DNA of 64,000 nt, taken from assembly GCF_041886205.1 (NCBI RefSeq), contig NZ_CP169029.1. One strand, 5' to 3'. Below, piece by piece: positions 1 to 41,609 of the stretch. The DNA is from Escherichia coli (GTDB lineage Bacteria > Pseudomonadota > Gammaproteobacteria > Enterobacterales > Enterobacteriaceae). Within the stretch, counting starts at the first letter, position 1, and every line of letters begins with the position of its first letter. The position numbers were made by a program, and so were the translations under genes. Under the pieces are notes generated by a model. The model was not told where the DNA came from, did no database searches, and worked only from the letters and a program-made list of their open reading frames with translations.

Positions 1-289
1 TCACATCTCCGGCGCGGCCATACGCCTCACCAAAGTTGCGATTACCCGAAGCAATAACGCCATGCAGCAACGCCCGGTTATGCTCGTCGTTTAAAAAGCG
101 AATTACCTGTCGTGGCACCGCGCCAGCCGTACCGCCGCCGCCGTAAGAGGGCACGATCAGGATGTAAGGCTCGTCTACCTGAATCCGTTCCCGCTCATTG
201 AGCGGGATGCGCACCGCGGGCAGACCTAAACGTTCGATAAAACGCTGCGTATTTTCGGAGCTGCTGGAGAAGTAGACGAGCTGGCTCAT
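1..289 (-). CDS. nrdI: NrdI, class Ib ribonucleotide reductase flavodoxin-like protein; N-terminal part only, gene runs off the left edge
   Basis: Minus-strand ATG at 289-287 overlapping the nrdH stop; translation [36 protein letters not shown] matches NrdI; nrdH-nrdI synteny. Confidence 0.85.
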
Positions 290-531
290 GCACTGGCCGC
301 GTGTGGCGCTGGATGCAGACGGTTAATCATGTCCGGACGGAAACCAGACCAGCTAAGATCGCCAGCAATCACTACCGGCAACTGACGAAAGCCCTGAGCA
401 CGCAACGTTTCTGCCGCTTCAGGAACGCGATCGACATTAATCATTTCAAAATCAAAGCCCCGGTTTTCCATCGCCCGTTTGGTGGCGTGGCACTGAACGC
501 AATCGTTACGAGTGTAAATAGTAATGCGCAT
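286..531 (-). CDS. nrdH: NrdH glutaredoxin-like redoxin
   Basis: 81-aa ORF with CVQC redox motif ([21 protein letters not shown]...) recognised as NrdH; followed by nrdI. Confidence 0.93.
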
Positions 532-723
532 GATTCGTATTTCCGTTTAAAATGAAGATACGGCGCGATGATACGCGTCGGGTTGTCTCTCTGTTGATAC
601 AGAGATACTAGATGTAGTTGAAAAAAGATTCAACCACACAATATATAGCAAATAGTGGTCGAAATTACCCTGGATATGAGCGTGACGGGGTAGGGGGATT
701 TTTGTGATTCACCAAGTAAGAAG

Positions 724-748
724 AAACCCCGAAGACAGGCTTCGGGGT
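724..748 (-). terminator. Hairpin downstream of ygaM, probable intrinsic terminator
   Basis: Inverted repeat accccgaag...cttcggggt just 3' of the ygaM stop. Confidence 0.4.
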
Positions 749-778
749 CAAAGACGCGTATTTATTATCATTTTTGCA

Positions 779-1108
779 CTACGATTTGCGCATGCTTAAC
801 AGTGCGCCGATAAAAATACCTACCGCAGCTGCTGTACCCACGCTACACCAGGGTCTTTCACGAACAAAAGAATCCGCGCAGCCAACGGCATCGCGTGCGG
901 CTTGCTGGACGCGAGTACGACCATGCATTCGCGCCCTGGTTTCTTTCAGCAATGCCTGAGCTTTACTGCGTGCGGCTTCAGCTTCCCCTTTGGCGTCGCT
1001 GCCCCAGGACTTCAATACAGATTCGAGGCTGTCAGCTAATTGATTGACATCATTCTGGATATCCTGCACGCCATCATCAACGTCGTTGCGGTTCGGTCGG
1101 TTAAACAT
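779..1108 (-). CDS. ygaM: YgaM, DUF883 (ElaB/YqjD family) membrane-anchored ribosome-associated protein
   Basis: ORF 779-1120; start trimmed to MFNRPNRNDV...; C-terminal hydrophobic anchor; synteny with ygaC/alaE. Confidence 0.85.
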   Translation of the reverse strand: MFNRPNRNDVDDGVQDIQNDVNQLADSLESVLKSWGSDAKGEAEAARSKAQALLKETRARMHGRTRVQQAARDAVGCADSFVRERPWCSVGTAAAVGIFIGALLSMRKS

Positions 1109-1259
1109 ATGATCCCCCATTAGAATTCGATGTAATTTTCAGTGTAGACCATAATTTTCTTAACTGAGGTTCATCGCGGCTTTATGGACTTTTCTGAAAG
1201 CGTTGTGAATGCGCAATCAGGTAAGGTAGGCCCGCGGTTGATAATAACGAGGATCAAAT

Positions 1260-1604
1260 ATGTATTTACGACCAGACGAGGTGGCGCGCGTACTTGAAAA
1301 AGTCGGTTTTACTGTCGATGTGGTAACCCAGAAAGCTTATGGTTACCGCCGTGGGGAGAATTATGTCTATGTTAATCGCGAAGCGCGAATGGGACGTACC
1401 GCACTGGTAATTCATCCAACATTAAAAGAACGTAGTTCGACACTGGCTGAACCCGCTTCCGATATTAAAACTTGCGATCATTATCAACAATTTCCGCTCT
1501 ATTTAGCGGGTGAACGTCATGAGCATTACGGTATCCCGCATGGCTTTAGTTCGCGTGTTGCGCTTGAACGTTATTTAAATGGTTTATTTGGCGAAGCCAG
1601 TTAA
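1260..1604 (+). CDS. ygaC: YgaC, DUF2002 family protein
   Basis: 114-aa [20 protein letters not shown]...; conserved position between ygaM and alaE. Confidence 0.85.
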
Positions 1605-1607
1605 AGA

Positions 1608-1632
1608 CGCGACTGGCGATGCCAGTCGCGAA
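1608..1632. terminator. Bidirectional hairpin between convergent ygaC and alaE
   Basis: Inverted repeat cgcgactggcg...cgccagtcgcg between the two stops. Confidence 0.45.
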
Positions 1633-1640
1633 AAGAAGAG

Positions 1641-2090
1641 TCAGGCTTTTACCTGCTGGTAACGGCTGACTTTAAACAGTCGGCGGCAATAATCGAGGAA
1701 GTAGCCATAAACCGCCCCCATCAACATCGAAACAACGATGTTTGAACTGACCGCCGCCATAATCTGATGCCAGTCTGCGCCCACCACTAACAAGATCGCC
1801 ACATACACCGGTGACTGGAACGTCACATAAGCCAGGATATCCGCCAGATTTTTTATCCAGCCCGACGGGCTAACTTTGCGTGCCGCGCGCATAAACAGAT
1901 CGCGGTACATACCGTATGGCCATGCAATTAAGATGTTCACCGGAATCGCTACCAATCTGGAATAAAAAGACTGTTCGAAGCTCATTCCGGAGAGGAAAAC
2001 TTCAATACACATGTTCACGACAGAACAGTAAACAACCATCGCGAACGTATCTGCAACTGCATGACGCAAGCGTGACTGCGGTGAGAACAT
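1641..2090 (-). CDS. alaE: AlaE (YgaW), L-alanine exporter
   Basis: 149-aa hydrophobic [24 protein letters not shown]... recognised as AlaE; synteny. Confidence 0.88.
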
Positions 2091-2649
2091 GCTAATGCTC
2101 CTTAATAAAAGCGTAATGGGATGTTAATGGAGATGAAAGCAGTGGATCTCATTGCCATCTGCATTTTCGCATAGCGTATATCGCTGGCTATGACTAATCA
2201 ATTAGTGAAAAATTTTTATTTAATCAGTTTTTGTAGATAAAATATTCCGTAACGGCTCGTTTTTTGTACATTGTGGATTTTTACATGCCGATATGATTTA
2301 TTTTTAATTAAATCAATTAGATATGGGCTTGCCTCTAATTTCACTAATGCAAGTTTGGGGGTGAGGTAACGCTATAAGCGTAGAGAATTCGGTGTATGTA
2401 GTGGCCGGGTCATTTTCAGCATTTTTTATGCCAGACAATGTACATTAACAGCAGAAAGCACCGGTGATGGATGTTTTCTTTTATTCTGTTATATTGCATT
2501 TTTATTCACTTTGGTTTTGTCAGGCTTGCGGAATTAGCGAGCAGAGAGCGCCGTTCTGTTCACCAATAATCTAAATTACTCATCAAAATGGCTAATATAT
2601 AATCTTGAAATTATTCTGAGAGTTTCAGAAAATAACAGCTGAAATAATC

Positions 2650-5600
2650 TCGCGCAGGACTGGCATACTAATTTTGTGACATATAAGGTACGCCACATCG
2701 ACATCACCAATCAAATACATACTCTTTTTTGTTTTGGTGCTCCAGCTGTTCCAGCACCATGTCCAAATGAAGTTCAGAAGCACCTCCACTCTCCTCTTTT
2801 GCCTGGCCACTGTCCGCTCTCAACTCCTCCATCTCACGTTTGTACGCCGAAGAGTTCCAATGTCGTCATCAGAAGTAACTGGAAGAGCAAGAGAGACACA
2901 CACACACACAGCCAACTGCATAAAAATTACGACTGTGAATGTTATAGTTGTTAATTAGCCGCCTTAAAGTTGAGAGCTTGTTGCACACGCCGTAATAATG
3001 AGGTGTTACGGTTGGCCAAATATAAATGTCATCAGTGAGCGTGCCAGCCCCCAGTGTTGTCAGGCCCGGCACCTGGAGAGCAATTTGCTGAGCCTCTGAA
3101 AGGCAGATCTTTGTCACTTCCTATTCAATGACTCAGGCGCGCTGCATGTGGGTCTTGTTGCTCTCGAGCGGTTGTTTATGGCATCTTCATCCAGTTGGTA
3201 TTCACATAAGTTGTTATTGGAAACAGAGCCCTATAAGCAAGTCCCGTCGAAGAAGAAATCCTGCCATTTAATGGTATAACCGAGACAGCACACGTGCTCA
3301 TTAGATTAACTACTGGCACCATTCTGATCTTGCATTAACGGAAGGTTCAGATTTGAATCACCGGGATGATGGGATCCAGTGGTTTTTCAAGGAATTGAAG
3401 TCCCACTTTCAGTTAGCATTTGTGGCATGTTGGCTCAACGTCACGCCACCACGTGGTGTCACCTTGATGCTGGAGACGATGTAATCTTCAGGGAAGATGG
3501 TTTTTTATGCAGAATGAAGTGAAATCGCCTTCAAGTAATGACCGATGAGCAATCATCAAGTGCGACGAAGATCCATTAAATTCTCGCTTGTGGATCAGAA
3601 TTCTGGCATCATGTGAAGTTGTTGAAACCAATGGGTCTCAGGAAGAATACTTGAGGTGGCGAATACCATCATCTACCGGAGCGGCCAAGAATGTGTTGGC
3701 GATCCCGGTCTGGTCCATAGAACTCTTTCCGTTGCACAGGAGCAAGTTGAATGCGAAGGCACCTTATTTGTGCAATGGTGCACCAGCTTTCGTGCTTGTT
3801 GTATGGAGGAGACTACAAGAACCCAACTTGTTAGGCGATTGCTTCAGGAACAGGAGCCACGCTGTGCGCTTTACAGGGCGCTGAGATTGTGAGTTGAGCC
3901 ATCAAAGTCATTTTAAGCGTTAGTTAAAATCAAGAAAACGAAGGAGAGTTAACAGTACCAGTCAGGCACAGTGTAATGAAATAAGTTAGAAGCTGTCAAA
4001 GACCGGCCAGCCGGAATGAGATCAATGCCCAAGTATAGATATTTTTTCAACAAATTAGTTTAGTAGTTCATAAGGGAGTACATGTGTTTCTGAGAATTGT
4101 TATCACCGATTCGTCGTTAGCCGTAAGGGTTTGTCTGTCAATCATCAAAACATTGTTGACTGCTTGATCTCCTTGTTCATTTTAATGTGTTTTGCTGTGT
4201 AGTCTTATTAGTCTGTGCTCATTCCCGTGTGCACCAACGCGTCATTTTTGCCCACATTTTTCGAAGCGATTTGTTAGTCAGAAGCGATGGTTGTTTAATT
4301 TGTTGGAGACAGAGAGTGAGAGAGCTGTATGTGTGTCAAGGTCAGGGACCACAAGGTGCCATCAGGTGAAGAAGGTGGAGGAACATTGGACAAAACCGGT
4401 ATGTCAGGCATGTCGATGAGCAGAAGGCGTTATATTGAAATTGCTGATTGGCAAAAGCGTTACTGGTGACTGACTGCTGAACGATAAGGGGAGCCAGAAA
4501 CCGTTGCTGGCATTTTGCTGCATATCCAGGTCGATGTTCAGGTAATGCCACAATGCCGCTGCTGATGCCAGTTTAAATCCGTCAGTCCTGCATCTTGAAT
4601 GGGGATTTCCAGCAGCAGGCTTCATGGATAACGCCAGTTGCAGAAACAGATAATCTTCAGCGTAAAGGAATTATGACAAAGGCGCAGACGTTGGCGAGCG
4701 TTGGATTTGCTGAAGAGGTGATCAATGGCTATCGCCTGCTGGATGCGGGAATTGTGTCAGGAGCTGCTGGATTATCGACTGACTGCGCGGTGATCTCGTC
4801 AGCATAATCGCCAGTCAGGTTTGGTCGATCCGTTGAACATTTCCAGATGCCGCATAAAACCAGGTCGTCGAGGAGAATTGATGTAACGTTAATGACAGAT
4901 CCAGAATGCTGGATTTGCAGGGAGATGGAGTCATAGCCCGCCACCATTGCCGGATGAAGCCGATGATAGCATCCACTTTACCGCTATCTACTGCGTCAGC
5001 GCCCAGCCTTAAGCCATAATCCTTTGTTAGGTTGTCTCCCATCATCCCCTTAATTGTGCTAGCACACCAATTGTTTACAGGATACATTTGCTTCCATATT
5101 GTGGGTGTCAAAATATAACGAACATAAGTAGTCTTGCCTTCACAGCCACCCTTGTCCTCATCCTTTTAGCTCCACCACCCACTAGGCTGTTCTTAGAGAT
5201 GGAGTTGTTGTGAGAAGAGTTTTCTGTACTGTTAATGCCAAATGCATATAATGCCAGCAACTTATCCAGATTCTTTATCTGTTAAGATTATTGTGCTACA
5301 CATAATTCTTTTGAATGCTAGAGCCATTTTTGAGAAGGTTGAAACTGTTGATGGGTTACTTTCTTATCATTATTGGAGCAGTGGAAGACCATGAACTTGT
5401 TGCATACACAACCGGTTAGTCTTTTCAATGCAGGACAATCCACTGAGAAGATATAATCGTTGATCGCAAGGAGCCAGTGAAATAGACCTCGAATTGTTTG
5501 GCTGACGAATAGGATCCCATTCCATCATCACCAACAGGAGCCAGCAGCTGATGAGATGTTAGCAGAACCAATGGACAAGCCACTGCAATGAGTGAGTTCT

Positions 5601-8600
5601 CGTTCTTCTGCTCTGGAACAAACTGGAATTGCTAACTGGAGATGGAGGCCAATCAGGAGAAGGAAAAGTGCCAACAGTGGCCATATGCGGAAGCTGTTAT
5701 TAAAATTGAAACACCTCTTGAGTGCGGTGTGAAGTAGTCTACCACCACCAAATCTTAGAAGACCTGGTGGAGGAAGAGAAAGCATCTACCTAGTGTCCGA
5801 CGGCGGCGGATTAGTTGATCACCGGGAGGAAGCATCACCCCTACGTGAAGGGAAGAGGAACGCGACGTGAAGAGGGCCGAGTCGAGGCAAAGTCGACGAC
5901 GTAAGCACATCAAGGTCAATGAGTTATTCTACACTGGAATATGTCCGAGTATTTACTTAGTGAAGAACCAATGGCTTGATCTAGGTTGGTTACCCCCGAC
6001 TAACCAATGACTACACAGGAGAAAGAAATATATAAATAAATAATAATGACAAGACCTTAGCGGTGGCGTGGAGGTTTTTGTTGTTCATTGTGATGGACAG
6101 AGTTCTGCTCATAAGAAGTATGGACGTACACTGTGGTTTAGATCAGGATTTAGTCAGGTTTATTGATAACTGTTGAGCATCTAAATGCCTTTAGGTTGCC
6201 TTACTTCAGCAGTTGCTAGCGGTGATTGTCATCACACCAGAAGAACAGAGCCAGCAAAGCCCAGCCAATGCCAGGTCAGCAGAACTCGGTCGAGTCAGGA
6301 GAAACCATGAGCGAGCGAGGTACTAGTTAGCAATGATGGAATGCCTGGACCAGAATGAGGAGATCATAGTGGTGAGTGTGCTTTCAGTGACAAAACCAGA
6401 GCCAAAACCAACAGCAACTAGCTGATGGCAGAGCCAGCTGAATTGCCTTTGCCGAGTGAAAAAATGGATGGGTGAAACACCCATCCTCAGCATCAAAACC
6501 AGAACTGATGTGTTCTGTGACAGGTTGGAAGATTGGCGTGTAGCTGGTGATGCTGCTGAGGAAGACAAAGAGCTGCCACAGCAATGGCAGAGAGGATGGC
6601 TGCTGGCCACTTTCAGTGGCTTGCTAAACCAGGTGGTTGATCACCGGACCCGGAAGTGGTGCACCAGCGAGATGCCCCACATTTCGCGTCGGGTTAGTGG
6701 TTTAATTTGTTATTTTTTTGCGGAGTGGCTGCAGATTGTTAGGTTGATTCCTGTTGATGAGATTCCACTAGGTGGGTGCAAGCTCATCCAGTCTACCTCA
6801 TCTCGTAGCTGTAGAGTGAGGGATTGTTTTACACCAGTGTGGTGAGCACTTGCTTTGCCTCAGCAGAAACATGGTGATGGATTTCCAGAGACTGATGAAT
6901 TGATGTTGTCCAGGATGCTGAGTGGAGGATGTGAGAGCAGGTTGGAGAAGACGGTCAGAGGAAGAAAGAAATTACTTTATTGTGGTGCAGGCATGGCTAG
7001 CTGGCTTAGTCGTCTGCCATCCTCGATCCATGGACATTGTCCAGCGGCAACGTCATTGCTGTTGCATGCCAGAGGACTCGGTTCTTCAGCTTTGTCCAGA
7101 TTGTCGTCTTCCGCAGACACTTGCTGAGACCTCAACATTTCAGCTAGCCACCCAGAATCGGGTTACGCAGGTGCCCCCCCCCCCCCACATCTTGAGCCAT
7201 GAGAGATCCAGATCATTTTTGCTAGTTGTGATCTAGTGGAGGGGGCGGTTGGCCTCCATCGAAGGCGTGAGATCGGGTGCTAGGCCCCATTGAGTTGCTC
7301 GATGAAGTAGTTGTATGCCGGGCGCCTTGACGTCGCACGTACGGACAATGTCGCCTTGCCGTCACAGTGCCCAGAGCCTTGCGTGTTGTGTAGACGCGCC
7401 TCCGGCGAGCTGCTTGATGATGCATGGGACATCTTTGTGGTGTAGGGCGATCGAAGGGTTTGTGAGTGGCTGCACAACCTGCACCACCGATTGTTGCTGC
7501 AGTGGGTAAGGAGTAGTGGTGGAGAAACCTGGAGGTCAGTGATAGACGATTGAAGGCCAGGTGCACCGACCTTGTCAGGGCGATGGTGCAGGGAGGTGGC
7601 GCTGCTATGTGTGGAAGTGATGGTCGGCGTGTGTTGTGGTGGTGTGGTAATTCTTCAGTCTTACTGCTTCATAAAGTTGTTGTTACCAAGAGCTGTTGTT
7701 TGGTTAATCTGCAATCTTTGAATTTCATAGTTGCATCATAGTTTGTAAGCGATACTCGGCCTGAGCAGGTGTAGCCTTCAATTGTCTGCATGGCCAACCA
7801 CTTTGGATCAAGGTGCCGAATCAAGCACGGTCGCCCGAACGAGACGATGGCCTTGAATCGACGGCACCGGGAGTCTTGGTCAGCAAGTTTGGTTAACCGC
7901 TTCACCAACGAAGGAGACCCTCTCCAACCACGCCGCCACCCAGAGTTCATTGTCTTCTCCACGGCGATTTTTAGTTAATCTATGCATATTTATTTTAGTA
8001 GTTTTCACGAGACCGAACCTTCTCCATGTACCAGTGGAGCCTTTCCAACTAAGTTGCTCACCCATTGAAAAAGAACCCATCGTTGGTACCGATGCCACTT
8101 GTACTCGATGCTTTGCCTTATGCCAGCGGCATATTTATGGTGAGAAATAGTGGAAAACCAAGTTTGGCTGCTGGCACGACACGGCTTCAACGTCAAGCCG
8201 AACAAGTGGGGTGAGGCTGAATGTTTCTTCGACACTTGGCGTTGGCGAACGACGAACCTGCTGGCTGAATGTTTATTTGGCTCACTGCAAAAGCAGCTCT
8301 CTCCCAGGCCACCTGGAGCAGCAGGCCTTCACTCTTTGTCACCTCTCCCAAGCTGGATGGTGAGTGATTCAGCTCACCAACTCATGAGGAATTTTTGCAG
8401 CACAAAAGGTGTGACAGCTGCCGCGACCAATAAGCTGCTGCAGAGACGAAAACTTGTGCAGAAATTGAATTCAGATGAGCTTCCATGCTCTGTTGATTGC
8501 ATTAATCAAGTAACTAAGAAGATGTGTTGCCTCCAGTTTGAGCCGAGTAGTTTGATGGTTTTTACTATACTGTTCAGAACTGGTCAACTTGGTTGTAGCT

Positions 8601-11150
8601 GTAAAGATGAGTTGAGATGCTGCCTTTACCTTTGCACTCATGCTGGTGCGAGCTGTGACCAGGAGACGACGGAAGGCCGTGGAATTGCCAGCCTCACCAG
8701 CTCAGCCAGAAGCTGTGTCTGACGCCTGCTCAGGCCACTGTGGGCTGCCAATGCTAGTTGCTTTCAGACATTGCGCCAGGAATCGATGGCATAATGGTGT
8801 TGCTGGCTCCAGAACAATTAGGTGTATCTCTTCCTCCATGTAACTGTTGCAGAATGTGTTTGCCCTCCAGGAAGACGCTACCCAGACCAGAAGGAAGGGG
8901 TTACTTATTACTCTTGCTTCAGCTGGTACCTGTCCACTTTAGTGTAGACTGATGTCATCAACGAGCAATGAAATGGGTGGCGGAGGCCAGCCAATGAGTG
9001 GGCAAATGCGTTGTGTGTCATAGTGGTTTATCAGCACCATGCACCGAACGTGACCAGCTTGTTGTGGTTTTTGCTATGTTGTGAGGCCGATCACGGCTCA
9101 TCCCCGTCATGCTGTGAAGAAGGACTGTGCTGAAGTTTATTACTTATTTGTCCGAAGGTTATTAATTAGGGTACATGTTCACTTATGTTGTAGACGTGCT
9201 AGGTCGACGAGGACAAAGGAGATGGAGCTGATTGCCAGGCGGACGGTGGAGGAAAACGGACGAGCCCATTGTGATGGCTGGTCACTGTGAGTGAGTGAGG
9301 AAGATTGTGAGGAAAGTGGATGGAGCAGAGAGAGAGAGAGTCCAGTGAGCCCCCAAGACGGTTTGACCTCAACCACTCAGTGGTGCAACTGTTGATCTGC
9401 ACGCACCGAATGAGACAAGACCAGGTGGTTAGGAAATGCTGCACAGAAGTGGTGCGTCAGGATGCATGTTGTGATGCTGCCTCCACCAGTGTGGCCATCA
9501 AACCATGGTGGTGTCAAGTGGTGTTGTAATGGCGCCAGACACGAAAGTGAGGACAAACTGGCTGTTTATTGTTGCAGCACCGCACTCAGCGTGAGCATTA
9601 GGCCAGGAAGAGAGCAGTTACGAGTTATCCATGTTGCCTGTGCACCACCACTCGTCCAGCTGACTGCTTCTGCGTCAGACTATGCCCTTGCCGTAACCGT
9701 TGCCATTGCCGCGACGGAGCCAACGCCACGGAGCCAGCGTCTGCACATTTGTTGTCAACTCCATGTCAAGCGACCCCTCGGAACGGTTGTGACATTTATA
9801 TGCGGTGGCAGTTTGCCGCCGTTCCATTTCAGAGTTCAGGTGTGCGGGCGACAGAGCGACTCCTGATGAGTTGGTCATCAGAGCCATGCTCCCAAAAGCC
9901 ATGCTTTGAGCTGTCACGGGGACACAAATCCTAGGATCAGGCCTCGCCCTGTGTCTTCAGCAGGAATGTCATTTTACAGTACAACTGCAGTCCACCTCAC
10001 CAAAAAAAAATCAGACGCCCATCTGTGACTCATGAATGTTTGTAGTGGTTAGGTTAGGAGAGGCAGCCACCTAGATCATGTGCCAACATCCTTGCTAGTA
10101 AGTGGTTATGTGTGAGACCAGAAGAGGTTGTTAATTCAGAGTCAACTGCTGTAAGCGGTACAGGTAGCAGCTTACTGTTTCTATGTGTTCAAAGTGACTC
10201 ACCGACTAGTTGCTCTTTCTTTCAAATTTTTGCCAACTAACTTTATATACAACCACTCACCATCAGATCAATGATGAAATATTTTGCCGACTTGTGCAGG
10301 CACATCCATGCTATGTGTGGTGGAAGAGTGAATTTAGACAGCAGAAGTCATTGGAGGTCAAATAATCCTCCACGGTACCCTTTACCACTTTATTTTCACA
10401 CCCACAAATTGATGTCACCGGACAGGCCGTCCAATCACTAGGCCAACAAGCCGTTGAAATGTTCTGCCAGCAGAAGAAAATGTAAATATGCCGCCATTGC
10501 ATCGAATTTTAGTGACTGAGTGACCACCGCCTCACCCTAGCTTCACCATTCCTACCGCCTACATCTACAACCACTCAATTCATTAAACAGCCCTTCAGGC
10601 TCAGGAAGTCTTGCAGAATGTGTTGTAATTATCTAATACAATTGTCAAAGACTTGGTGACCAAAATGAAGTGATCCATCAGTTGCCCAGGTATGCATTGT
10701 AGTCAAGTGCCCTGTTTGTGATGTTATATATATATCTGATGAATGTAATAGGTTACACAGCAGAGTTGTGAATCACAGGTTGTTTTTTCAGTGGACGATG
10801 CATTCATGTAGCCATTCTTTTTACTAGATGAGGAAGGGAGCCATCATCATTTGAAGCTAATTTAAAACATCCAAAAATGTACCAGCTACAATTGTTTTTC
10901 ATCGAAAATAGAGGAGTTGAACATTTACAGTAGCCAGAATAAAGTGAGAGGAAAAATGAAATGCAGAAAGACAGGTTAGGCCAAGATACGGTCAAAGAAC
11001 TCAATAACTAGAGGAAACGACACACACCCGCCCTGTTTTAGGGTAATAAAACATGAGATGACAAACAACTGTGTGGCTGCTTCCGGAAATAAGATGCAGG
11101 CCCGAGCCAAGCATACAATTAGATATGTCACAAACGCCTCAACTAGTAGA
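2650..11150. other. About 8.5 kb block with no credible coding potential and atypical composition (approximate boundaries)
   Basis: Only short overlapping ORFs on both strands with low-complexity, Cys/Trp-rich translations; frequent CTAG; simple runs (CA)n at 2896-2910, C13 at 7174-7186, (GA)n at 9326-9340, (TA)n at 10725-10737; no RBS-led genes. Confidence 0.6.
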
Positions 11151-11155
11151 TATGA

Positions 11156-13285
11156 TCAATCAGTTGTGGAGAATCTTGAGGAACGAGAAACATGATCACT
11201 CCCTGAATGATTGATCTCTCTGATGTTGCTAGGTGAGAGGCAACCTCTCAACCTTCTTTTATTTATTATAACTAGTCCATCATGAGGAGAGTGATTAATG
11301 TTCACAGAATCCCCACGACTAAAGGCCAGAACGTTTTTAGTTGCAAATACACCCTCAAATGCGCTCCATATTCCTGCTTTATCTATATATAATGCGTGGA
11401 ATTCATTGTAGAGCTGCTGATAGGTAGAGCAACCTTTATTAAGCCACGCCTCACCGCCGACACGCGTCGACCCATCATCATTTTTAATTTCAGTCGTTGA
11501 TTTTAATACTTGGCCATCCCAGTAAACTAAAGGCCTGCTGAACGGGAGAGCGGCCATATATGCCATTGCTAATTGTTCATCTTGTTGATGGTTAAATAGA
11601 AAGTCATTGAAAAGATTGCCATTGTTAGGAAAATCGTGGTTAATGTTAATCAATATCCGTCTTTTTGATGGGATGCTTGAGATTGTTGAACCCGGTTTTG
11701 ATGCAAGGGTTTGGAGATCGCCACCAAATGAAAAAGCTTTTATCGTCTTCATGAGCAATGAAAAATCAATGGCGCTTAAATCATCTCTTTCATAAAGCAG
11801 CGATGACATTTGTTGTTCATCCAACTGACTAGTTACCAGATATTCCATGTAATTCATAACGGCTTTTTCATGATATTTTGGGTTAAATAAGTTAGTATTG
11901 TGTAATCGCTCATTATAATTTTTAAGCGGTGGGGTTATTGATCTTTCTATTTGTTCATGTTTTGAGTGTTTTGCTGCATCGTAACGTAAACCTCGTACGC
12001 CATATTTTCGCATTTCACGAACGTATTGATTTTGCAGCATAATAACCTGGTCACTTTTGGGGGTTGTTTTAGGCATTCCATTTAAACGCTTTTCTTTTAA
12101 TGCATAGAGGTTTTCCCATTCATCCTTAGAAATATTATCTTTACTTGCTTCGAAGTCTTTTGCAGTGAGATGTATATCTTCTGGATGGATTTGTTTACGT
12201 TCTTTTGTTACTGGATCTATAGTAAATGGAATCAAAACCTGACCTTGCCAATAGCCAGGGATACCACTTTCTATATCTTTACTGATCTTCGCTCGTATAT
12301 CAGTAGAGGGATAATCCAGGTCATTTTTACCACTACCCCCGATTCCCATAAAGTTAAAGGTATAATCAGGAATGATATCGATACCAAATTTTTTAGCATC
12401 TTTAACCAATGCGATAAAATCCTGCAAATCTCCCATTGGATTATGGATGGTACAAAGATCTTCGGGTTGATAAGCGTGAAACCAGTAACCTTTTTCTTCT
12501 TCGGGAGTTTCTGGTCCGTCGGCGCGGAAAGTTGTCACTGGAGGGATTTGTATATACCCATAATGGCAACGTGCAAACTCAGACATATTTTCCCTGATTT
12601 GCTGGTAGGTGGCATTAAAAGCATGAAGAATCGCTTCGCCAGGTTTTTTAGGGGTGATGATTTCACATTGTGATTTCTGAACAGCAGTAAGAGATTTACG
12701 CTCAAGTGTTTGCCGTAGATGTTCTGGATTGATTAATATTTTAAATGTTTCTTGCTGTCCGGAAGGTGACGTCACGTTAATATTATATACATCGGCTGCC
12801 AGCTCATAGTCAGGGATGTTAATAGCATATGCAACATATTTATCTTTTGGGGAGGGTTTTTCAGATATAATGTGGGTGAAATATTCAGCAGGACCATACT
12901 GGTGAACCCCCTTGTTATCTTCTCTTTCATTCATTGTATCTCTTTGATAAATCCATGTTTTTCCTTCTCCTATCCTGTCTGGCGCTGTAATGCTACGCTG
13001 TGCAGCTTTATTCAGTTCACGGTAAGTTGTATCTGGAAAAAGGGAAATTTTATAATCGTTTTTTAACAGATCATTAATGATTTTTTCTGCGTGAAAAGTT
13101 GATATAATTTCTCTGTCTTTTAAATCCTGAGGATAAACTCCACAAGCATTAATAATATTTGTTACACAGTTTAGATATTCTAATGTATTTAATTTGGAAT
13201 TTAGATCCCCGTCAGTAATGTTCCATGATAACAATGTGGGGGTGTCGATAGGTAAATTTCTTGGTCCTGGTTTTATAGAAAACAT
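11156..13285 (-). CDS. ygaQ: Glycoside hydrolase family 13 (alpha-amylase-like) protein, YgaQ-like
   Basis: 709-aa ORF; GVRGLRYDAAKH resembles GH13 conserved region II; lies beside ileY as ygaQ does in K-12; AT-rich; the C-terminal end may be affected by the junction with the anomalous block. Confidence 0.55.
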   Translation of the reverse strand: MFSIKPGPRNLPIDTPTLLSWNITDGDLNSKLNTLEYLNCVTNIINACGVYPQDLKDREIISTFHAEKIINDLLKNDYKISLFPDTTYRELNKAAQRSITAPDRIGEGKTWIYQRDTMNEREDNKGVHQYGPAEYFTHIISEKPSPKDKYVAYAINIPDYELAADVYNINVTSPSGQQETFKILINPEHLRQTLERKSLTAVQKSQCEIITPKKPGEAILHAFNATYQQIRENMSEFARCHYGYIQIPPVTTFRADGPETPEEEKGYWFHAYQPEDLCTIHNPMGDLQDFIALVKDAKKFGIDIIPDYTFNFMGIGGSGKNDLDYPSTDIRAKISKDIESGIPGYWQGQVLIPFTIDPVTKERKQIHPEDIHLTAKDFEASKDNISKDEWENLYALKEKRLNGMPKTTPKSDQVIMLQNQYVREMRKYGVRGLRYDAAKHSKHEQIERSITPPLKNYNERLHNTNLFNPKYHEKAVMNYMEYLVTSQLDEQQMSSLLYERDDLSAIDFSLLMKTIKAFSFGGDLQTLASKPGSTISSIPSKRRILININHDFPNNGNLFNDFLFNHQQDEQLAMAYMAALPFSRPLVYWDGQVLKSTTEIKNDDGSTRVGGEAWLNKGCSTYQQLYNEFHALYIDKAGIWSAFEGVFATKNVLAFSRGDSVNINHSPHDGLVIINKRRLRGCLSPSNIREINHSGSDHVSRSSRFSTTD

Positions 13286-13844
13286 AATAACGTTCCTCTA
13301 ATGGTAGAGTAATATGATGTATACGGAAACATAAAAATGTTTAATTGTTATGAAAGTAATTGCAAACAGATGTCCTATTTTTATCCAATATTTATATGGA
13401 AAAGGATAATGCTTAAATCTGTTTTTTTAATTATCGATGTGGTCTGGAGAGGCAACTGTCAAAAATCGCTCATACGAAACTAATTATTAGCAGAATAAGT
13501 TCTATAAAAGAATATATTGCTATATGAAGTTTATTTTTATGGAGTGAAAAGTAACAGATATCATAATGATGCGAAAACTCTTCAGTTAATGTAATAAACT
13601 TATATTATTAGATACAAAATCATTACAAAGTATCATTGAATCAATGATAACTATAGATAGTGTTAATTATTAACATTTGCTTGTTGACTGCGAGTATCGA
13701 CTTTGCGAATGGAGGCGATGTCGGGTTTTATGTCGCATGTATTGACGACCCAAGGTGAATGGGAACGCATAAAAATCTGTTATTTACATCATAAGATCAT
13801 CATGTTTATTGCGTGGTTTATAAGTATTGTTATTGCATACTTAA

Positions 13845-13920
13845 GGCCCTTTAGCTCAGTGGTTAGAGCAGGCGACTCATAATCGCTTGGTCGCTGGTTC
13901 AAGTCCAGCAGGGGCCACCA
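13845..13920 (+). tRNA. ileY: tRNA-Ile2 (anticodon CAT, lysidine-modified), ileY-type
   Basis: 76-nt cloverleaf ggccctttagctcagtggttagagcaggcgactCATaatcgc...ggggccacca with 7-bp acceptor stem and CCA end. Confidence 0.93.
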
Positions 13921-13928
13921 AATAAAAC

Positions 13929-13970
13929 AAGGACTTAGACAGGAAGCTGGCTAAGTCCTTTTTGTTTTGT
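13929..13970 (+). terminator. Intrinsic terminator after ileY
   Basis: Hairpin ggacttag...ctaagtcc followed by tttttgtttt. Confidence 0.6.
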
Positions 13971-13976
13971 TTCAAT

Positions 13977-14001
13977 CTGGGTGACGTAATGGGTGACGTA
14001 A
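13977..14001 (+). repeat. Tandem GGGTGACGTAA motifs at the tRNA-proximal island end; possible integrase arm-type or AlpA binding sites
   Basis: tgggtgacgtaatgggtgacgtaa; the same motif recurs at 33759-33804 next to the integrase start. Confidence 0.45.
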
Positions 14002-14036
14002 CTCAACTATAGGTGCCGTAGTCAGGGAGATTTAGC

Positions 14037-14831
14037 ATGAGCTTTAAGGATAAAGTTGAAGAGAAAAAAATGCGCCGTATGGCCCGTCCCCCTGAGTTAA
14101 CGGTAAAGGACTGGATTAGCCTTTATGATCTTCTTCGTTCAGCCAAAGCTCAAGACTCAGAAGCCATGTACGAAGACTTCGCCTCTGTGCTGTTAACTAC
14201 CCTGTCGGTTGAGCATCATCCGGAACTATACCGCCTGGACGGAAACAAACTAAACGCTGTTGCCGATGACCATTTTGCCTGGGACCTACTATCCGCCCCA
14301 ATGAAAGGGAAAATGTCCCCTGAAGAATTGGCGAAGCGCCCGAAGACCCTTTCCCAACTTCTTTGTATCTACGATGAAGATATCAGTAACGACGAGTCAC
14401 TTCGTACACATGGCTTCTTGCGTGACGCTATTGCCCCTATCCTCGATTTCGAGCTTCTGGATAGCATCGAAGATGAGCCTGACTACAAAGAAAAATATTT
14501 CGAGTTGCTAGCAGCGCAAAAGCACTCGACTCCCCCGCCACTAAGAGGGGAAAGTTATGCTATCAAACGAGAAGAGTTGCTGATCACAGCCCTTGCGGTT
14601 ATCTCTCAAAATCAAAGAGACGCTAATAAAAAGGTCGTCCCAACAGTTACTGAACTTCTGAATCAGATAGAAAAACATGCCTCTGCGTTCTGGCCTCACA
14701 GTAAACAACTTCCGATGTCTCGTGAGAATGCTTCTAAAGAGCTAGGCTTCGCCTTACATCTTTTAGAACAACCAAATCAGAATATTGAATTTCTTCGGGA
14801 AGCCAAAAAAGCAAAAAGAAAAAGTGCATAA
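14037..14831 (+). CDS. Hypothetical protein (264 aa), island-encoded
   Basis: Clean ORF with acidic helical composition and a lysine-rich C-terminus; no motif recognised. Confidence 0.5.
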   Translation: MSFKDKVEEKKMRRMARPPELTVKDWISLYDLLRSAKAQDSEAMYEDFASVLLTTLSVEHHPELYRLDGNKLNAVADDHFAWDLLSAPMKGKMSPEELAKRPKTLSQLLCIYDEDISNDESLRTHGFLRDAIAPILDFELLDSIEDEPDYKEKYFELLAAQKHSTPPPLRGESYAIKREELLITALAVISQNQRDANKKVVPTVTELLNQIEKHASAFWPHSKQLPMSRENASKELGFALHLLEQPNQNIEFLREAKKAKRKSA

Positions 14832-14963
14832 AAAGAAATAGTTACAAAAGGTACCCAGTAATCTTCAGGAAGGTACACGAGAAATATACCGTTCAGTTTG
14901 ATTAACTCCGTTCAGTTTCAGCTTTCACCACCAGGAGTTATTCAATTGAAAAATAAACCAACC

Positions 14964-15167
14964 ATGTCTGATAAGGTTGTCGCCCTTCATCAGCCCCAAC
15001 GTCTGATTCGCATTGATACAATGCTTCAGCTCCTCGATTGCAGTCGCACCACCCTCTACCGCTGGGTTAAAGCTGGCATTTTCCCACAGCCGATAATGCA
15101 TGAGGGCCGAACCGTAGGATGGCCAGCCAATACGTATCAATGCTGGCTTGAGCAAAATAACAAGTAA
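14964..15167 (+). CDS. AlpA-family phage transcriptional regulator (Prophage CP4-57 regulatory protein-like HTH)
   Basis: LIRIDTMLQLLDCSRTTLYRWVKAGIFPQPI matches the AlpA/MerR-like HTH pattern; start trimmed from ORF 14898 to MSDKVVAL. Confidence 0.65.
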   Translation: MSDKVVALHQPQRLIRIDTMLQLLDCSRTTLYRWVKAGIFPQPIMHEGRTVGWPANTYQCWLEQNNK

Positions 15168-15272
15168 TTCTGTTTGTTAAAGGGCTGAAATATTCAGCCC
15201 TTTCTTCATCTGACAATGAAACAAACTGGAACAAAAACGATTATTTTCACCTATTCTGCGACATGCTAAAAC

Positions 15273-16589
15273 ATGAGTAACTCTCTGATTAATCAAGTAA
15301 CAAAGCCCTCACCTGGTCAGGAACTCACCTCGGTATTTAATACTATTACGCCCGATAAGCCTGGCAACCTTGTTGAATATCAGCCAAAGGGAACGTTTGT
15401 TTTCAAAGAAGTGATGTGGTCTGTGCTGCCAGAGAAACGCAACCAGGACACGAAGATCATGAAAAGAATCTTCGGGGCAGTTGACAAGGTATCAGCGATG
15501 TCTCGCTTTCTTGCGGTCAGATATGATTTTCGGCTCCCGACCTACAGTGCGGATAATCGCATAATGGATGATTTCCATAATTTACTTTTCCGCCAGTTAA
15601 GTAAGAACTACCCAAAATCGTTTATCAGCTATCTTTGGGTAAGAGAGCAGGGCTCAGGGGAAGCACAGCATTATCACTATTTGTTGATGCTGGATGGCAA
15701 CTATATCCGTTATCCAAATAAGCTGAATACGATTGTCCGACATTGCTGGGAACAGGTTGCTGGTGGTTCGGTATGGTTCCCGGAAAACGGTTATTACTTT
15801 GTGAGCGAAAATGATCTCAAGACCTATACCGAATTGATGCTGAGAGTTAGCTATCTGGGTAAGCGCCGTACTAAAGAGTCAATTGATAAAGGTATCAAAC
15901 TTTTTGGCTCAGGCATGCGCAAACCGAAACCTGTCGCGCCTTCACGCCAAAAGTCTGCAATAACACCCTGCAAGCCAATCAACCAAAAAGCGGAGACGAA
16001 AACCAACGATCAGGATATGACGTTGAAATCCACCTACTCAGGAATGTTGGACAAATATTTTCTGGGCAAAGCCCGATTACCCGCCGTTCTGCGTAAACGT
16101 TCATCCTATGAACTTTATGACGAAAATAAATGGTGGTGTAATTCACCACGTTGGTCCGGCCATCGTCATAACTACGTGTTAGAGGCTCTGATTACTGGGA
16201 TCAGCCTTTCTGATTACGCACGCAAGTACAAGTTGAATCCAGTACGGGTATATGCAAACTGTCGCCGTGTTGGGGGGCAAAGCCTTAAAATTATTCACTG
16301 GGCATGGCATCGCTATTGCTTCCAGAAAAGCAAATCCACACAGGATGACTACATTAACAATCACCGGCTGAATCATAAAACAGCTAAAAAGCAGTTACGG
16401 CGTAAACCAATGAGCTCTCACTGGAGCCAGCACTTTGATCGATATTATCAAAAGTACTGGCCGAAAGGCTGGACTGTGGCCGACTACTGCCGTGAACACA
16501 ATCTGGTCGCCAGCACTGCCAGACGTTATATAGTCGATTTTCCATTTATAGGCCTGATAGACCCGTTCTTGTTGAAACCATGGTTATAG
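15273..16589 (+). CDS. YfjJ/YagK-family protein (inovirus Gp2-like), probable HUH-type replication initiator
   Basis: 438-aa ORF with HUH-like motif QHYHYLLML; AlpA-adjacent position as in CP4-57 yfjJ. Confidence 0.5.
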   Translation: MSNSLINQVTKPSPGQELTSVFNTITPDKPGNLVEYQPKGTFVFKEVMWSVLPEKRNQDTKIMKRIFGAVDKVSAMSRFLAVRYDFRLPTYSADNRIMDDFHNLLFRQLSKNYPKSFISYLWVREQGSGEAQHYHYLLMLDGNYIRYPNKLNTIVRHCWEQVAGGSVWFPENGYYFVSENDLKTYTELMLRVSYLGKRRTKESIDKGIKLFGSGMRKPKPVAPSRQKSAITPCKPINQKAETKTNDQDMTLKSTYSGMLDKYFLGKARLPAVLRKRSSYELYDENKWWCNSPRWSGHRHNYVLEALITGISLSDYARKYKLNPVRVYANCRRVGGQSLKIIHWAWHRYCFQKSKSTQDDYINNHRLNHKTAKKQLRRKPMSSHWSQHFDRYYQKYWPKGWTVADYCREHNLVASTARRYIVDFPFIGLIDPFLLKPWL

Positions 16590-17176
16590 AGATGAAAACA
16601 CCATAACAGTGTCACCTGGTATACTTACTGAGCGCGGCGTAACTTAAATATAAACACTTAGCCGCCATCAGTAAGCAGAGCCTTATCAACACTACCAGGG
16701 AATTATTGTGCAGCATGATAGCTGAGGTACCTCTCAATTCTTGACGGACATTAACGCACAGACAACGCTGATTACCTCCTGTAAGCCAATTTATATCTGC
16801 TTGCTGCCACATATCCGCTGGGACTAATCCCCTTTAAACACCTTTTACTTCAAAAAAATGTTTTCCTTCTGATTTATCCCATACGCGAAATAATGAAGAT
16901 TTTATTTTAATTACTAATACTTTCAATGAGATAAGATGCATACATTCTTACACTCATATGATCACTTTTATTTTTCTTTTAATATCAACACGTTATGAAT
17001 TGATCAGCACAAAAGTCACTGCAGGGGGTTAGCTGATTGAACGTTTCAGTTCGTTTCTAATGGCCACATATAGATTCACATCAAGAACTAGTGATCACTG
17101 TAGGGTAACGGTATGCCCAGATCAGCCTGCAGGGTATTCGCTGCGGATGACATGAAAAACAAAGACAGGGGATTGC

Positions 17177-17824
17177 TTACGGGTCAACAAACACACTGAT
17201 GGGGAGGTTAAACCGGCGCGCAAGTGCTCGCTTGTGATCCAGTGTTAATGTGCAATCCCCTTTCAGGATGCGACTCACCAGAGATTTATTACCAATCTCT
17301 TCTTCAAAATCGCTCTGAGTCAGTTTGTGCTGATCCATCAGTACGCGCAGTAAGGCAACACCCGTTGGGACCGCTGCAATACGGCTATTAAATTCAGCAA
17401 ACTCCGGCGCTTCATCTTCATACTGACCGATTTTCGCAACCAGAATATCCACCAGCGGATGGTCCGGCTCGTGTTCAATCAGATACTCGACCAGAGCCAG
17501 TGCATCTTCACTGTGGAAGCGTACGACTGATGTATAGGTAACATTTTGTTCAGTAATATATTTCATGGCTGCCAGTAAGTAGGAAGCTTTGAAAGTCACG
17601 TCCTGATAGTCCTTAGCTAACAAACTCCCATTCTCTTCAAACCGTTCAACAAATGCTGCAACTTCTTTTGGATCGATACGGCTGGTTTTATCTTTTCCGT
17701 TTCGAACAAACAGCTTTTGTTCTTCAGTATATAGCGTAAAAGGTACCTTCCTTGCCCCAGTAGACAGTTCAACTGGTTGGGAAAAAGACTCCAACATTAA
17801 ATGATAGAAATCTTTATAAGTCAT
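17177..17824 (-). CDS. Protein with C-terminal XRE-type helix-turn-helix and uncharacterised N-terminal domain
   Basis: C-terminal LTQSDFEEEIGNKSLVSRILKGDCTLTLDHKRALARRFNLPISVF resembles HigA/XRE HTH; immediately downstream of the McrC-like gene. Confidence 0.55.
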   Translation of the reverse strand: MTYKDFYHLMLESFSQPVELSTGARKVPFTLYTEEQKLFVRNGKDKTSRIDPKEVAAFVERFEENGSLLAKDYQDVTFKASYLLAAMKYITEQNVTYTSVVRFHSEDALALVEYLIEHEPDHPLVDILVAKIGQYEDEAPEFAEFNSRIAAVPTGVALLRVLMDQHKLTQSDFEEEIGNKSLVSRILKGDCTLTLDHKRALARRFNLPISVFVDP

Positions 17825-17913
17825 GATTACTACTCCCTCATCATTTTAGCACTCAAGAAAATACATGATGTGGTTGATTATCCGGTTGATAATTATGAAT
17901 CGTCATCGTCTCA

Positions 17914-19215
17914 TTACGGGGAAAACAGGGGGAAGGACGATTGCCACTCACCTTCCACTAATGCCCCTGATTCAAGCTCGAAGGGCACACACCAGAGCGA
18001 TAAATGTTTATCAAAATGGAACACTGGCAACGGAGTATCAAAAAACTGATGACGTGGATATATCAGCATCATATTCCCCTTCCCTTGCAGATATTTTTGC
18101 CCATAAGCGAACATCTGATACAGATCAGCCTGGTTAATTTCATACTTTCTCAGGCTGTTATCAGCTCGGCTGTCTAACAGCTTCCATTTGGCATCCAGTA
18201 CCATTACCTGCTCACCTGTGATGAGAAAGTCAGGTTTAAGCATGAACCATTGTTGAGGAGCCCTTTCGCCAGCAGGTACATGATCTAACAAATAATGACG
18301 TTTTGCCTGCTCAATAAGCTGATAATCCCTCAGCAAAGATAAAGCCAAACTGCGCCCCACCCAGCATTCATATAATTTTTCCATCGGGAACAACAGCGAG
18401 ATCCCCTGATGCAACCCATGCTGAAAATCTGGATTCAGTTTTTCCAGAATAAGTTGGCACCATGGCTTGATGGCACGATAAGCATAGAGATATTTACCGT
18501 TGCTCCATTGCGCCAGAGGCTGCGTTGTACTGCCACAAATTGGCTCTATACCGTCCAGTTGGTGGCTCAACGTGTTCGCCTGTCGCCAGCTCTGCCCCTC
18601 TTTGGTCATTTTAAGCACCCAATTCAGGGCCGTACGTAACAGACGGTTTTCAACTCGCTGAGGTGAAAACTCCGCATAACGCACATGAAAGCGAGCATCT
18701 CTACCAGGAGGCTGTCTCATTTGTGCCGTGATGTTCAACTGACCACGGATAAAAGCGCTGTGCTCATCCTCAACAAGGTGGTAGTCGAACCGCAACCCTT
18801 TGTGTACCAGTTCGGTAAGATGCCGCAAGAACTCGCTGAAAATCCACTCATGCATCGGCTGGTTGCTCCGCTGCAATGCAGCCTGATTAACTTCTCGGGG
18901 TGTAATCCCCAATGAAGCGCTGAGCATTCGACGTAAAAGCTGACGCAGGGGGATTATCTCAGTTGGCGCTTCAAATGTGGTTTTGGGCAGAATTTCAATT
19001 GACTCGCCATTCGGGGATTGTAGATAACCGACATAGCTTCCCAAACGCAAAAACCGCTTCCCTTCTCGGCTGAGAATTTGAGAGGTACCACTCCACTTTT
19101 GTTGCAATTGCTCAAGCCAGGAAAAGGTTGCCTCAGAGACAATTCCCAAATCCATACTGGCTGTTTGAGAACTATCACAAGTCAGCAGAGCATATTCCCG
19201 GACCTGGATCATCAT
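17914..19215 (-). CDS. McrC-like PD-(D/E)xK nuclease subunit
   Basis: 433 aa; C-terminal PDF...VLDAKWK catalytic-type motif; start overlaps the stop of the upstream McrB-like gene. Confidence 0.7.
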   Translation of the reverse strand: MMIQVREYALLTCDSSQTASMDLGIVSEATFSWLEQLQQKWSGTSQILSREGKRFLRLGSYVGYLQSPNGESIEILPKTTFEAPTEIIPLRQLLRRMLSASLGITPREVNQAALQRSNQPMHEWIFSEFLRHLTELVHKGLRFDYHLVEDEHSAFIRGQLNITAQMRQPPGRDARFHVRYAEFSPQRVENRLLRTALNWVLKMTKEGQSWRQANTLSHQLDGIEPICGSTTQPLAQWSNGKYLYAYRAIKPWCQLILEKLNPDFQHGLHQGISLLFPMEKLYECWVGRSLALSLLRDYQLIEQAKRHYLLDHVPAGERAPQQWFMLKPDFLITGEQVMVLDAKWKLLDSRADNSLRKYEINQADLYQMFAYGQKYLQGKGNMMLIYPRHQFFDTPLPVFHFDKHLSLWCVPFELESGALVEGEWQSSFPLFSP

Positions 19216-21194: not shown

Positions 21195-21223
21195 TTCCTA
21201 CACCACTCCTTGATGAAAAAGCG

Positions 21224-28175: not shown

Positions 28176-28358
28176 AAAAAAGTGGCAAGATTATACCCCA
28201 TCAGGCATAAGATGCTTTGACTTATAACGCATCAGTTTGAAACACAATGGTGATGGGGGTCACAGGGGCTGACATGTACTTTTAAGATTAAAAAGCATTA
28301 ACATCTACTTTTGAAGAAAACAGAAAAAAACAATCACAAACCTTTAAAAACAAAAACT

Positions 28359-32135: not shown

Positions 32136-32155
32136 TAAATATTAGATATTTTTAT

Positions 32156-32194
32156 ATTAGAGGTGAGGAGATGGCGTCACCTCTAATATTTTCG
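32156..32194 (+). terminator. Intrinsic terminator after the RT-nitrilase gene
   Basis: Perfect 10-bp inverted repeat ttagaggtga/tcacctctaa followed by tatttt. Confidence 0.6.
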
Positions 32195-32428
32195 CTGATT
32201 GTATTTAGCATCAAATAATAAAGGTACAATTAATTTAAGTGACTATCATGAAAAAATTAGTTCCGCCATATCAAGTAACCCCGGCACAAATCTATCGTTC
32301 CGTTGCCAGTTCTACAGCCATTGAAACCGGAAAACCCGTGCAAGAAATTGAGCGACAGCTCAAACGTAACCGAACGCTGGCGAAGAACGTCGGCCTCGCC
32401 AGCAAATCCAGAGATCCGATTTAAGCCT

Positions 32429-33736: not shown

Positions 33737-33758
33737 AGTATTTTTCAGTCCTTTGTTC

Positions 33759-33804
33759 GTTACGTCACCCAGTCTGATTCTGGGTGACGTAGTGGGTGAC
33801 GTAA
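33759..33804. repeat. Three GGGTGACGTA motifs (one inverted, two direct) upstream of the island integrase
   Basis: gttacgtcaccc ... tgggtgacgtagtgggtgacgtaa; same motif as 13977-14001. Confidence 0.45.
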
Positions 33805-33929
33805 GGATGATACTGAAGGTAAAAACGCAGAACAACATGAAACAACAACCAGCAAATAACCTACTGTTATTTATTAAATTTAATCTAACGTGAAAAAAGA
33901 TGCAAAATCATGAAACATGGATTTCATAT

Positions 33930-41597: not shown

Positions 41598-41609
41598 CCA
41601 TCAACGAAA

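Follow-up and report, generated by a model that had tools for sequence, protein, structure and literature searches.

The 8591 bp at positions 2663-11253 of the window, by which we mean the whole 64,000-nucleotide stretch of Escherichia coli DNA analyzed here, are very probably a corrupted copy of the genome's own stpA-to-glaH segment, that is, an artefact of the data rather than a biological element. The block is no element and has no function of its own. The original prediction had described a stretch at 2650-11150 that replaced the stpA-to-csiD region; what we found is that same region, from stpA to glaH (csiD), still colinear but heavily corrupted. The block as such was located correctly, while its exact edges had to be moved, given that homology to E. 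coli ends at position 2662 and restarts at 11254. It is defined by the diagonal of shared k-mers, a global alignment, the identity profile and the selection-blind character of the damage.

The edges of the block are sharp. Identity was 100% through position 2662 and again from 11254, with values of 0.39-0.65 per 250 columns inside, and at the left edge the fall from 100% to about 0.55-0.65 took place within a few bases. Both flanks were 99.96% identical to E. coli strain 6EVA (positions 1-2662 aligned with positions 1175-3836 of the 6EVA locus at this identity), and the remainder of the window outside the block was ordinary-looking E. coli sequence. The left edge falls in the alaE-stpA intergenic region. 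According to the ORF list and the annotation of the 6EVA locus, the left flank carries an intact native alaE (1641..2090, minus strand), followed by the intact part of the intergenic region (2091..2662), whose final clean base lies 97 bp upstream of the expected stpA start. The right edge falls inside the coding sequence of an alpha-amylase-family (ygaQ-like) gene on the minus strand, of which the 5' part is intact (11254..13285, from the ORF list and the comparison with 6EVA) and the 3' end, placed by alignment mapping, is corrupted (11059..11253). The ygaQ-like ORF of the window (11156-13285) encodes 709 amino acids, the final 33 codons being junk inside the block; the native protein has 750.

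Over its whole length, the block was colinear with the native 10,164 bp segment stpA-ygaP-ygaV-yqaE-kbp-csiR-gabPTD-lhgO-glaH, a counterpart that also spans the 3' 221 bp of the alpha-amylase-family gene. The colinear band contained 81, 39, and 18 shared 10-, 11-, and 12-mers, respectively, against 7, 0, and 0 when the reversed block was used as the null, and the offset between block and native segment rose smoothly from 0 to 1573. The global alignment of the two scored 642, compared with 2-12 for five control stretches of 10 kb, the reverse complement of the native segment among them. Two simpler transformations were rejected: a shuffled native segment disagrees in length (8591 and 10,164 bp) and base composition and with the order being kept, and reversed or complemented native sequence gave no signal. 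At the sites that differ between strains 6EVA and GDSC2227PM, the block agreed with 6EVA in 103 cases and with GDSC2227PM in 36; the counts come from an allele-masked alignment, since alignment to a single strain had favored that strain. These surviving strain-specific alleles indicate that the parent of the block was the flanks' own lineage.

Degraded coding sequence with homology to known bacterial genes, which the original prediction had set against its own reading, was found at the DNA level for 11 genes. The stpA remnant (2759..3128, plus strand) corresponds to 405 native nucleotides, of which 59% of the bases are kept; its reading frame is lost and it gave no tblastn match. Alignment mapping placed after it the remnants of ygaP (3164-3631, minus), ygaV (3639-3905, minus), and yqaE (4082-4210, plus). 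The best-preserved part is the kbp remnant (4287-4720, plus), with 65% of its bases kept. It was recovered by blastn (72.5% identity over 120 nt, E-value 5e-8) and marginally by tblastn with amino acids 3-78 of Kbp (31%, E-value 0.011). The remnants of csiR (4721..5352), gabP (5373-6643), gabT (6847-7961), gabD (7975-9141), and glaH/csiD (10026-10807) were likewise mapped by alignment, all on the minus strand as is that of lhgO (9159-10015), the most damaged, with 45% of the bases kept and 34% deleted.

At the protein level very little of this is visible, and the earlier claim that the block holds no credible genes was borne out. Its longest ORF has 190 amino acids, and its longest stop-free frames (192, 150, and 148 codons) are at chance level, the mean maximum being 152-161 in random Markov-1/2/3 sequences matched in composition. 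The period-3 signal was absent from the block (0.09-1.6, vs. 3-11 in neighboring genes), and its ten longest ORFs gave no NCBIfam family, nor anything close to any cut-off. As had been stated, there was no StpA-like translation in tblastn searches of the block; all 12 native proteins were used as queries, and the sole match was the marginal one of Kbp. The composition is not E. coli-like either, in agreement with the original prediction. CpG and TpA are depleted (observed/expected ratios of 0.59 and 0.60) and CA/TG is in excess (1.39), and CTAG occurs 26 times (3.0/kb), whereas the native segment has 0.1/kb and the window outside the block 0.7/kb. The combination of short open frames, low CpG and high CA/TG was seen in none of the other 2 kb stretches of the window. 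The bias is strand-asymmetric, as seen in GG and CC (0.78 vs. 1.13), and G and C make up 25.6 and 21.7% of the bases, respectively. The low complexity that had been noted holds only mildly, in the form of six simple repeats of 8-14 nt; the (AC)7, (AG)7, and C13 runs exceed Markov expectation, and homopolymers of at least 6 nt occur at 0.93 runs/kb, including a new C13 and a new A9.

The eukaryote-like composition, the short microsatellites and the lack of bacterial ORFs are what would be expected of foreign DNA, whether eukaryote-like contamination, a chimeric join, a vector or an engineered insert replacing the native genes. We give this explanation practically no weight, since full-length colinearity with the native segment and the lineage-specific E. 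coli alleles refute it: homology to the supposedly displaced sequence runs from stpA to glaH. Moreover, the strand-asymmetric dinucleotide bias is unlike genomic eukaryotic DNA, and blastn in 'distant' mode found no match to the block among plasmids (vectors included) or phages. The collections searched gave no matches, and no ORF belonged to a family that would point to mobility genes. Megablast of the block against 5,426 complete E. coli genomes gave nothing, positions 2663-6600 had no match in E. coli by blastn in 'distant' mode, and exact 30-32-mers from the block and the left junction were absent from GTDB genomes and JGI metagenomes. We ascribe the eukaryote-like composition to the corruption process and not to a eukaryotic origin. 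The absence of ORFs over 8.6 kb could suggest a functional non-coding element of great size, be it a structured RNA or a regulatory array, but this is just as hard to credit. An Rfam scan of positions 1-16000 at the gathering threshold returned only a tRNA at 13845-13917, and no family in the block; ARAGORN also reported only the tRNA at 13845 and none in the block. There was no conservation of the block in the other genomes, and a damaged gene cluster explains its sequence. Of the candidates first listed, an assembly or data artefact is retained together with the non-credible coding capacity, while colinearity removes the foreign, contaminant, engineered, and large non-coding ones.

With respect to the damage itself, about 57% of the native bases are kept, 24% are substituted and 19% are deleted; the total damage is about 45%. 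Small deletions numbered approximately 570 and small insertions 170 (a ratio of about 3.4:1), spaced at about one indel per 12-14 nt and leaving the segment 1573 bp shorter on balance. One or a few large deletions do not account for this shortfall, as none was dominant and the largest reached 66 bp upon realignment with cheap gap extension. Substitutions amounted to about 0.3-0.4 per site, with all 12 types present at 5-20% each and with asymmetry between strands (C>T 0.196 vs. G>A 0.095). The C>T excess on what is presumably the leading strand, if its orientation is taken from the K-12 gene order, has the same direction as natural replication skew. The damage is selection-blind: codon positions 1, 2, and 3 and intergenic DNA were hit equally, with 0.556, 0.590, 0.548, and 0.592 of the bases kept, respectively. 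It was roughly but not perfectly uniform across the block (34% deleted in lhgO vs. 10% in kbp), and the deletion rate stayed flat at 0.18-0.21 for homopolymer runs of 1-5.

Real biology could be invoked for such a tract, through targeted mutagenesis, localized hypermutation or the re-import by recombination of a long-decayed pseudogene tract. The block is genuinely homologous to native genes, and recognizable homology with broken frames, as in natural pseudogenes, extends to 11 genes (with the E-value of 0.011 for Kbp by tblastn). Deletion bias and selection-blind change resemble neutral pseudogene decay, and a deletional bias in bacteria was reportedly described by Mira, Ochman and Moran in 2001. 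The region is also dispensable, because some strains have IS1-associated deletions there. Nevertheless, about 0.4 substitutions per site plus some 740 indels would take neutral evolution tens of millions of years, whereas the flanks match a living strain at 99.96% identity and the surviving alleles come from the same lineage. Neither a divergence compatible with the flanks (99.96% vs. about 57% of bases kept) nor gradual, gene-wise borders were seen; the edges are sharp to a few bases, one of them within a gene. Known targeted mutators do not match a spectrum of all 12 substitution types plus indels. To our knowledge, deaminase-T7 fusions, APOBEC and RIP produce almost only transitions (C>T/G>A) and no indels, whereas here C>T/G>A did not dominate and about 570 deletions and 170 insertions were present. 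In addition, the block was absent from every other genome searched. In attention to this, an origin in real biology is very improbable, and so is a living E. coli in which sharply bounded in vivo hypermutation had left a 10 kb tract about 45% diverged and the chromosome otherwise unchanged.

The more serious competitor, still unlikely, is a very poor long read (e.g., early nanopore 1D) that was left uncorrected and bridged a gap between accurate short-read contigs. It would account for a noisy colinear copy of the strain's own sequence that switches abruptly to near-perfect flanks, which is the arrangement observed, and for errors that are strand-specific and deletion-biased. For R7 flow cells, an accuracy of 67.4% has been published, with 24.2% mismatches, 7.5% insertions, and 8.3% deletions (PMC5093776), and the 24% mismatch of the block equals that figure. 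Early nanopore accuracy ranged between 65 and 88% (PMC5093776). A total damage of about 45%, with 19% deleted, is however well beyond even the R7 values. Base calling with a 5-mer model yields reads without homopolymers longer than 5 (PMC5093776), while the block contains C13, A9, and runs of at least 6 at 0.93/kb, so that long homopolymers are neither absent nor compressed. Its deletions are independent of homopolymer length, in disagreement with a nanopore or 454 signature, and the 10 kb region is repeat-free, with no cause for a short-read gap.

We therefore return to the corrupted copy, whose source was most likely computational, a real genome window having been either put through simulated neutral decay or scrambled on purpose. 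The damage we found is blind to selection and stays within an exact interval, outside which the sequence is normal, with deletions heavier in lhgO than in the rest. The starting material would have been the native stpA..glaH segment together with the 3' end of the amylase-family gene in a 6EVA-like lineage. From one exact coordinate to another, a position-independent noise process would then have overwritten the (+) strand as written with substitutions of all types and frequent small indels, biased towards deletion. The changes show a context bias that destroys CpG, and a few short simple repeats are expanded. We infer that the process was non-biological, as no natural process accounts for damage that is sharply bounded and selection-blind and whose spectrum matches no known mutator. 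The depletion of CpG and TpA, the excess of CA/TG and the repeat runs imply a generator more elaborate than a plain independent-site mutator.

A cell that did carry the sequence would be a strain missing 11 genes, with StpA and the GABA/glutarate cluster among the losses. Barring the improbable case that the sequence is real, annotators would wrongly log the loss of stpA, of the gab/csiD-lhgO cluster and of five other genes, as well as a truncated amylase-family protein. As biology it offers nothing new, whether an element, foreign DNA or a giant non-coding RNA. The lesson is one of quality control, in that an alien-looking stretch, gene-free, with eukaryote-like dinucleotides and without BLAST hits, can turn out to be the expected genes of the locus blurred by heavy noise. 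Standard BLAST overlooks this kind of corruption, which is exposed by k-mer diagonal counts and global alignment to a syntenic close relative.

Compared with known systems, the block shares with bacterial pseudogene decay the lost frames, the predominance of small deletions over insertions and the equal damage at all codon positions, but neither flanks of 99.96% identity nor an edge that cuts through a gene otherwise intact is compatible with natural decay of such depth. Localized hypermutation (deaminase mutators, kataegis, fungal RIP) also produces a defined tract with sharp limits and a C>T excess; it consists almost only of C>T/G>A changes without indels, in contrast to the approximately 740 indels found here. 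An uncorrected R7-era nanopore read filling a gap in a hybrid assembly would resemble the block in its excess of deletions over insertions, its mismatch rate of about 24%, its strand-specific errors, and its abrupt borders with accurate contigs. The deletion load of the block is, however, roughly double the value published (PMC5093776), and its homopolymers of 6-13 nt are not something that 5-mer base calling can produce (PMC5093776). A plain independent-site mutator, unlike the block, would give neither dinucleotide context effects nor expansions of small simple repeats. In silico corruption or simulated decay agrees with the block in having no copy in the public collections searched, in its uniform and selection-blind damage with all substitution types, limited to exact coordinates and to a single strand as written, and in leaving untouched the flanks of a tract whose parent is the local native sequence.

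Megablast comparison of the window with 5,426 complete E. coli genomes gave matches for positions 1-2662 and from 11254 onward and none between 2662 and 11254, so that the foreign-looking block spans 2663-11253 (8591 bp). To its left lies E. coli chromosome (nrdI-nrdH-ygaM-ygaC-alaE) and to its right an alpha-amylase-family (ygaQ-like) gene and a tRNA(CAT). These flanks were 99.96% identical to those of the close relative strain 6EVA, in which they lie 10,164 bp apart. The edges were sharp to a few bases, the left one being located 97 bp upstream of stpA and the right one within coding sequence: the ygaQ-like ORF (11156-13285, minus strand; 709 aa vs. 750 aa in 6EVA) has its first 676 codons intact, while its final 33 are junk within the block. 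The original prediction was correct as a description of the block, except for its right edge, 11150, which was about 100 bp off. In some natural E. coli (3036 and AR Bank #0346 were compared), an IS1 joins the ygaC/alaE side straight to the alpha-amylase-family gene. In these strains the same region, stpA-glaH, was lost in a genuine IS1-associated deletion and is therefore dispensable.

The absence of credible genes from the block was confirmed. Its longest ORF had 190 aa, and its longest stop-free frames (192, 150, and 148 codons) were of the length found in composition-matched random sequences (Markov-1 to Markov-3). Three-base periodicity was present in the neighboring genes and absent from the block. 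The composition is, as anticipated, not that of E. coli: CTAG occurred 26 times (3.0/kb vs. 0.1/kb in the native segment of 6EVA), the CpG observed/expected ratio was 0.59 vs. 1.27, the TpA and CA/TG values were 0.60 and 1.39, and the bases were skewed (G 25.6% vs. C 21.7%). No second 2 kb stretch of the window paired equally short open frames with block-like composition.

Elsewhere, a genomic island of about 20 kb (13845-33979) was found at the tRNA(CAT) gene (13845-13920; tRNA-Met by ARAGORN, annotated as tRNA-Ile in RefSeq), bounded on the far side by a direct repeat (50 bp, 33930-33979) of the 3′ end of this tRNA. Window positions 12027-28369 were 99.8% identical to the annotated strain GDSC2227PM and, judging by this identity, the island encodes a YagK/YfjJ protein, McrC with an AAA ATPase (McrBC-like) and a type I restriction-modification system. 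GDSC2227PM lacks the distal end (28311-33838), which carries a 1274-aa DRT type 1 reverse transcriptase-nitrilase fusion defense protein (28311-32135; PADLOC Drt1a, 1396 bits, full length) and an adjoining 469-aa tyrosine integrase (32429-33838, minus strand). The top-ranked matches cover only window positions 33930 onward, which suggests that few complete E. coli genomes have this combination. The rest of the window, as far as ssrA, is made up of E. coli islands in an ordinary mosaic. The second mosaic island (36888-53333), which adjoins ssrA in a CP4-57-like position, showed only 89-94% identity to other E. coli, in alignments that covered about 56-58% of the query. It includes a 1569-aa YpjA/EhaD-type autotransporter ORF (36888-41597) and a GC-rich stretch (42000-46000, about 0.60) with many short overlapping ORFs.

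By sensitive blastn, the block had no match in 72,556 plasmids or 50,697 phage records, nor did positions 2663-6600 in E. coli genomes. Exact 30-32-mers of the block and its left junction were absent from GTDB species genomes and JGI metagenome contigs, and none of the NCBIfam matches of its ten longest ORFs came close to any cut-off. Neither Rfam at gathering thresholds, a scan for structured RNAs that had been proposed at the outset, nor ARAGORN revealed RNA genes in the block.

The native segment of 6EVA comprises stpA, ygaP, ygaV, yqaE, kbp, csiR, gabP, gabT, gabD, lhgO, and glaH, together with the final 221 bp of the amylase-family gene. When the block was compared with this segment by small-word blastn, weak matches appeared in the correct order and nearly correct position, the best one in kbp (72.5% over 120 nt, E 5e-8). 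Counting shared k-mers by diagonal, with the reversed block as null, gave 81 10-mers, 39 11-mers, and 18 12-mers in the colinear band vs. 7, 0, and 0, and the diagonal offset climbed smoothly across the block, starting at 0 on its left edge and reaching 1573 on its right; these counts make the relationship unambiguous. Global alignment scored 642, while five equal-length controls, the reverse-complemented native segment among them, scored 2-12. Therefore, the block is the native gene cluster itself, heavily damaged, and a remnant of every native gene could be placed by alignment, such as stpA (2759-3128), kbp (4287-4720; 65% of bases kept, 10% deleted), gabT (6847-7961), and lhgO (9159-10015; 45% kept, 34% deleted). 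The lhgO remnant was clearly more damaged than the rest, so either the noise was not perfectly uniform or the parent was unlike 6EVA there. Foreign DNA, a vector, and a large non-coding RNA element were rejected, given this colinearity and the lack of plasmid, phage, or Rfam matches. About 3% of sites differ between 6EVA and GDSC2227PM within the native segment and, in an alignment with these sites masked because naive counts are reference-biased, the block matched 6EVA in 103 cases and had the alternative allele in 36. Its parent was thus of the lineage of the flanks, that is, the genome's own native sequence.

About 57% of native bases were retained, 24% substituted, and 19% deleted; being taken from an optimized alignment, these figures would, if they err, understate the true damage, and only 48% of bases were retained under a second gap-scoring scheme. 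Identity was 100% as far as position 2662 and again from 11254; throughout the block it was 0.39-0.65 per 250 columns, and the longest exact run in common was 14 nt. There were about 570 deletions, mostly of 1-5 nt (maximum 29 nt), and about 170 insertions (maximum 7 nt). Retention at codon positions 1, 2, and 3 (0.556, 0.590, and 0.548) equaled that of intergenic DNA (0.592), which indicates that the changes were never seen by selection. All twelve substitution types were present, with strong strand asymmetry (C>T 0.196 vs. G>A 0.095; retained C 0.60, A 0.79). C inside CpG was damaged more (0.35 retained vs. 0.52), hence the eukaryote-like dinucleotide profile. A few simple repeats exceeded the length given by Markov models: (AC)7 at 2896, C13 at 7174, (AG)7 at 9327, A9 at 10002, and (TA)5 at 10725.

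Some 0.4 substitutions per site and 740 indels amount, at established mutation rates, to tens of millions of years of neutral bacterial evolution, and we know of no natural process that confines such change to a sharp interval beside 99.96%-identical DNA. To our knowledge, no targeted mutator yields every substitution type together with abundant indels, and genuine in vivo hypermutation of the 10 kb tract within such sharp limits is highly improbable. As the change is blind to coding, follows one written strand, and is seen nowhere else, we read the block as a corrupted copy rather than as a biological feature. The block is almost certainly an artefact of some kind, and very probably a corrupted copy of computational origin; simulated neutral decay, the deliberate scrambling of a real window, or a similar process would fit every property. 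An uncorrected early-nanopore read serving as gap filler would fit several, as the block mismatch is the same as the 24.2% published for R7, but it carries about double the published load of deletions, and the 6-13 nt homopolymers of the block cannot be emitted by 5-mer base calling (PMC5093776). Moreover, its indels are not tied to homopolymers, deletion frequency being independent of homopolymer length. As biology, the block, read as a corrupted copy, is nothing novel: it looks like the decay of pseudogenes under a deletional bias, but the time depth and borders do not fit, and it resembles localized hypermutation, but the mutation spectrum does not.
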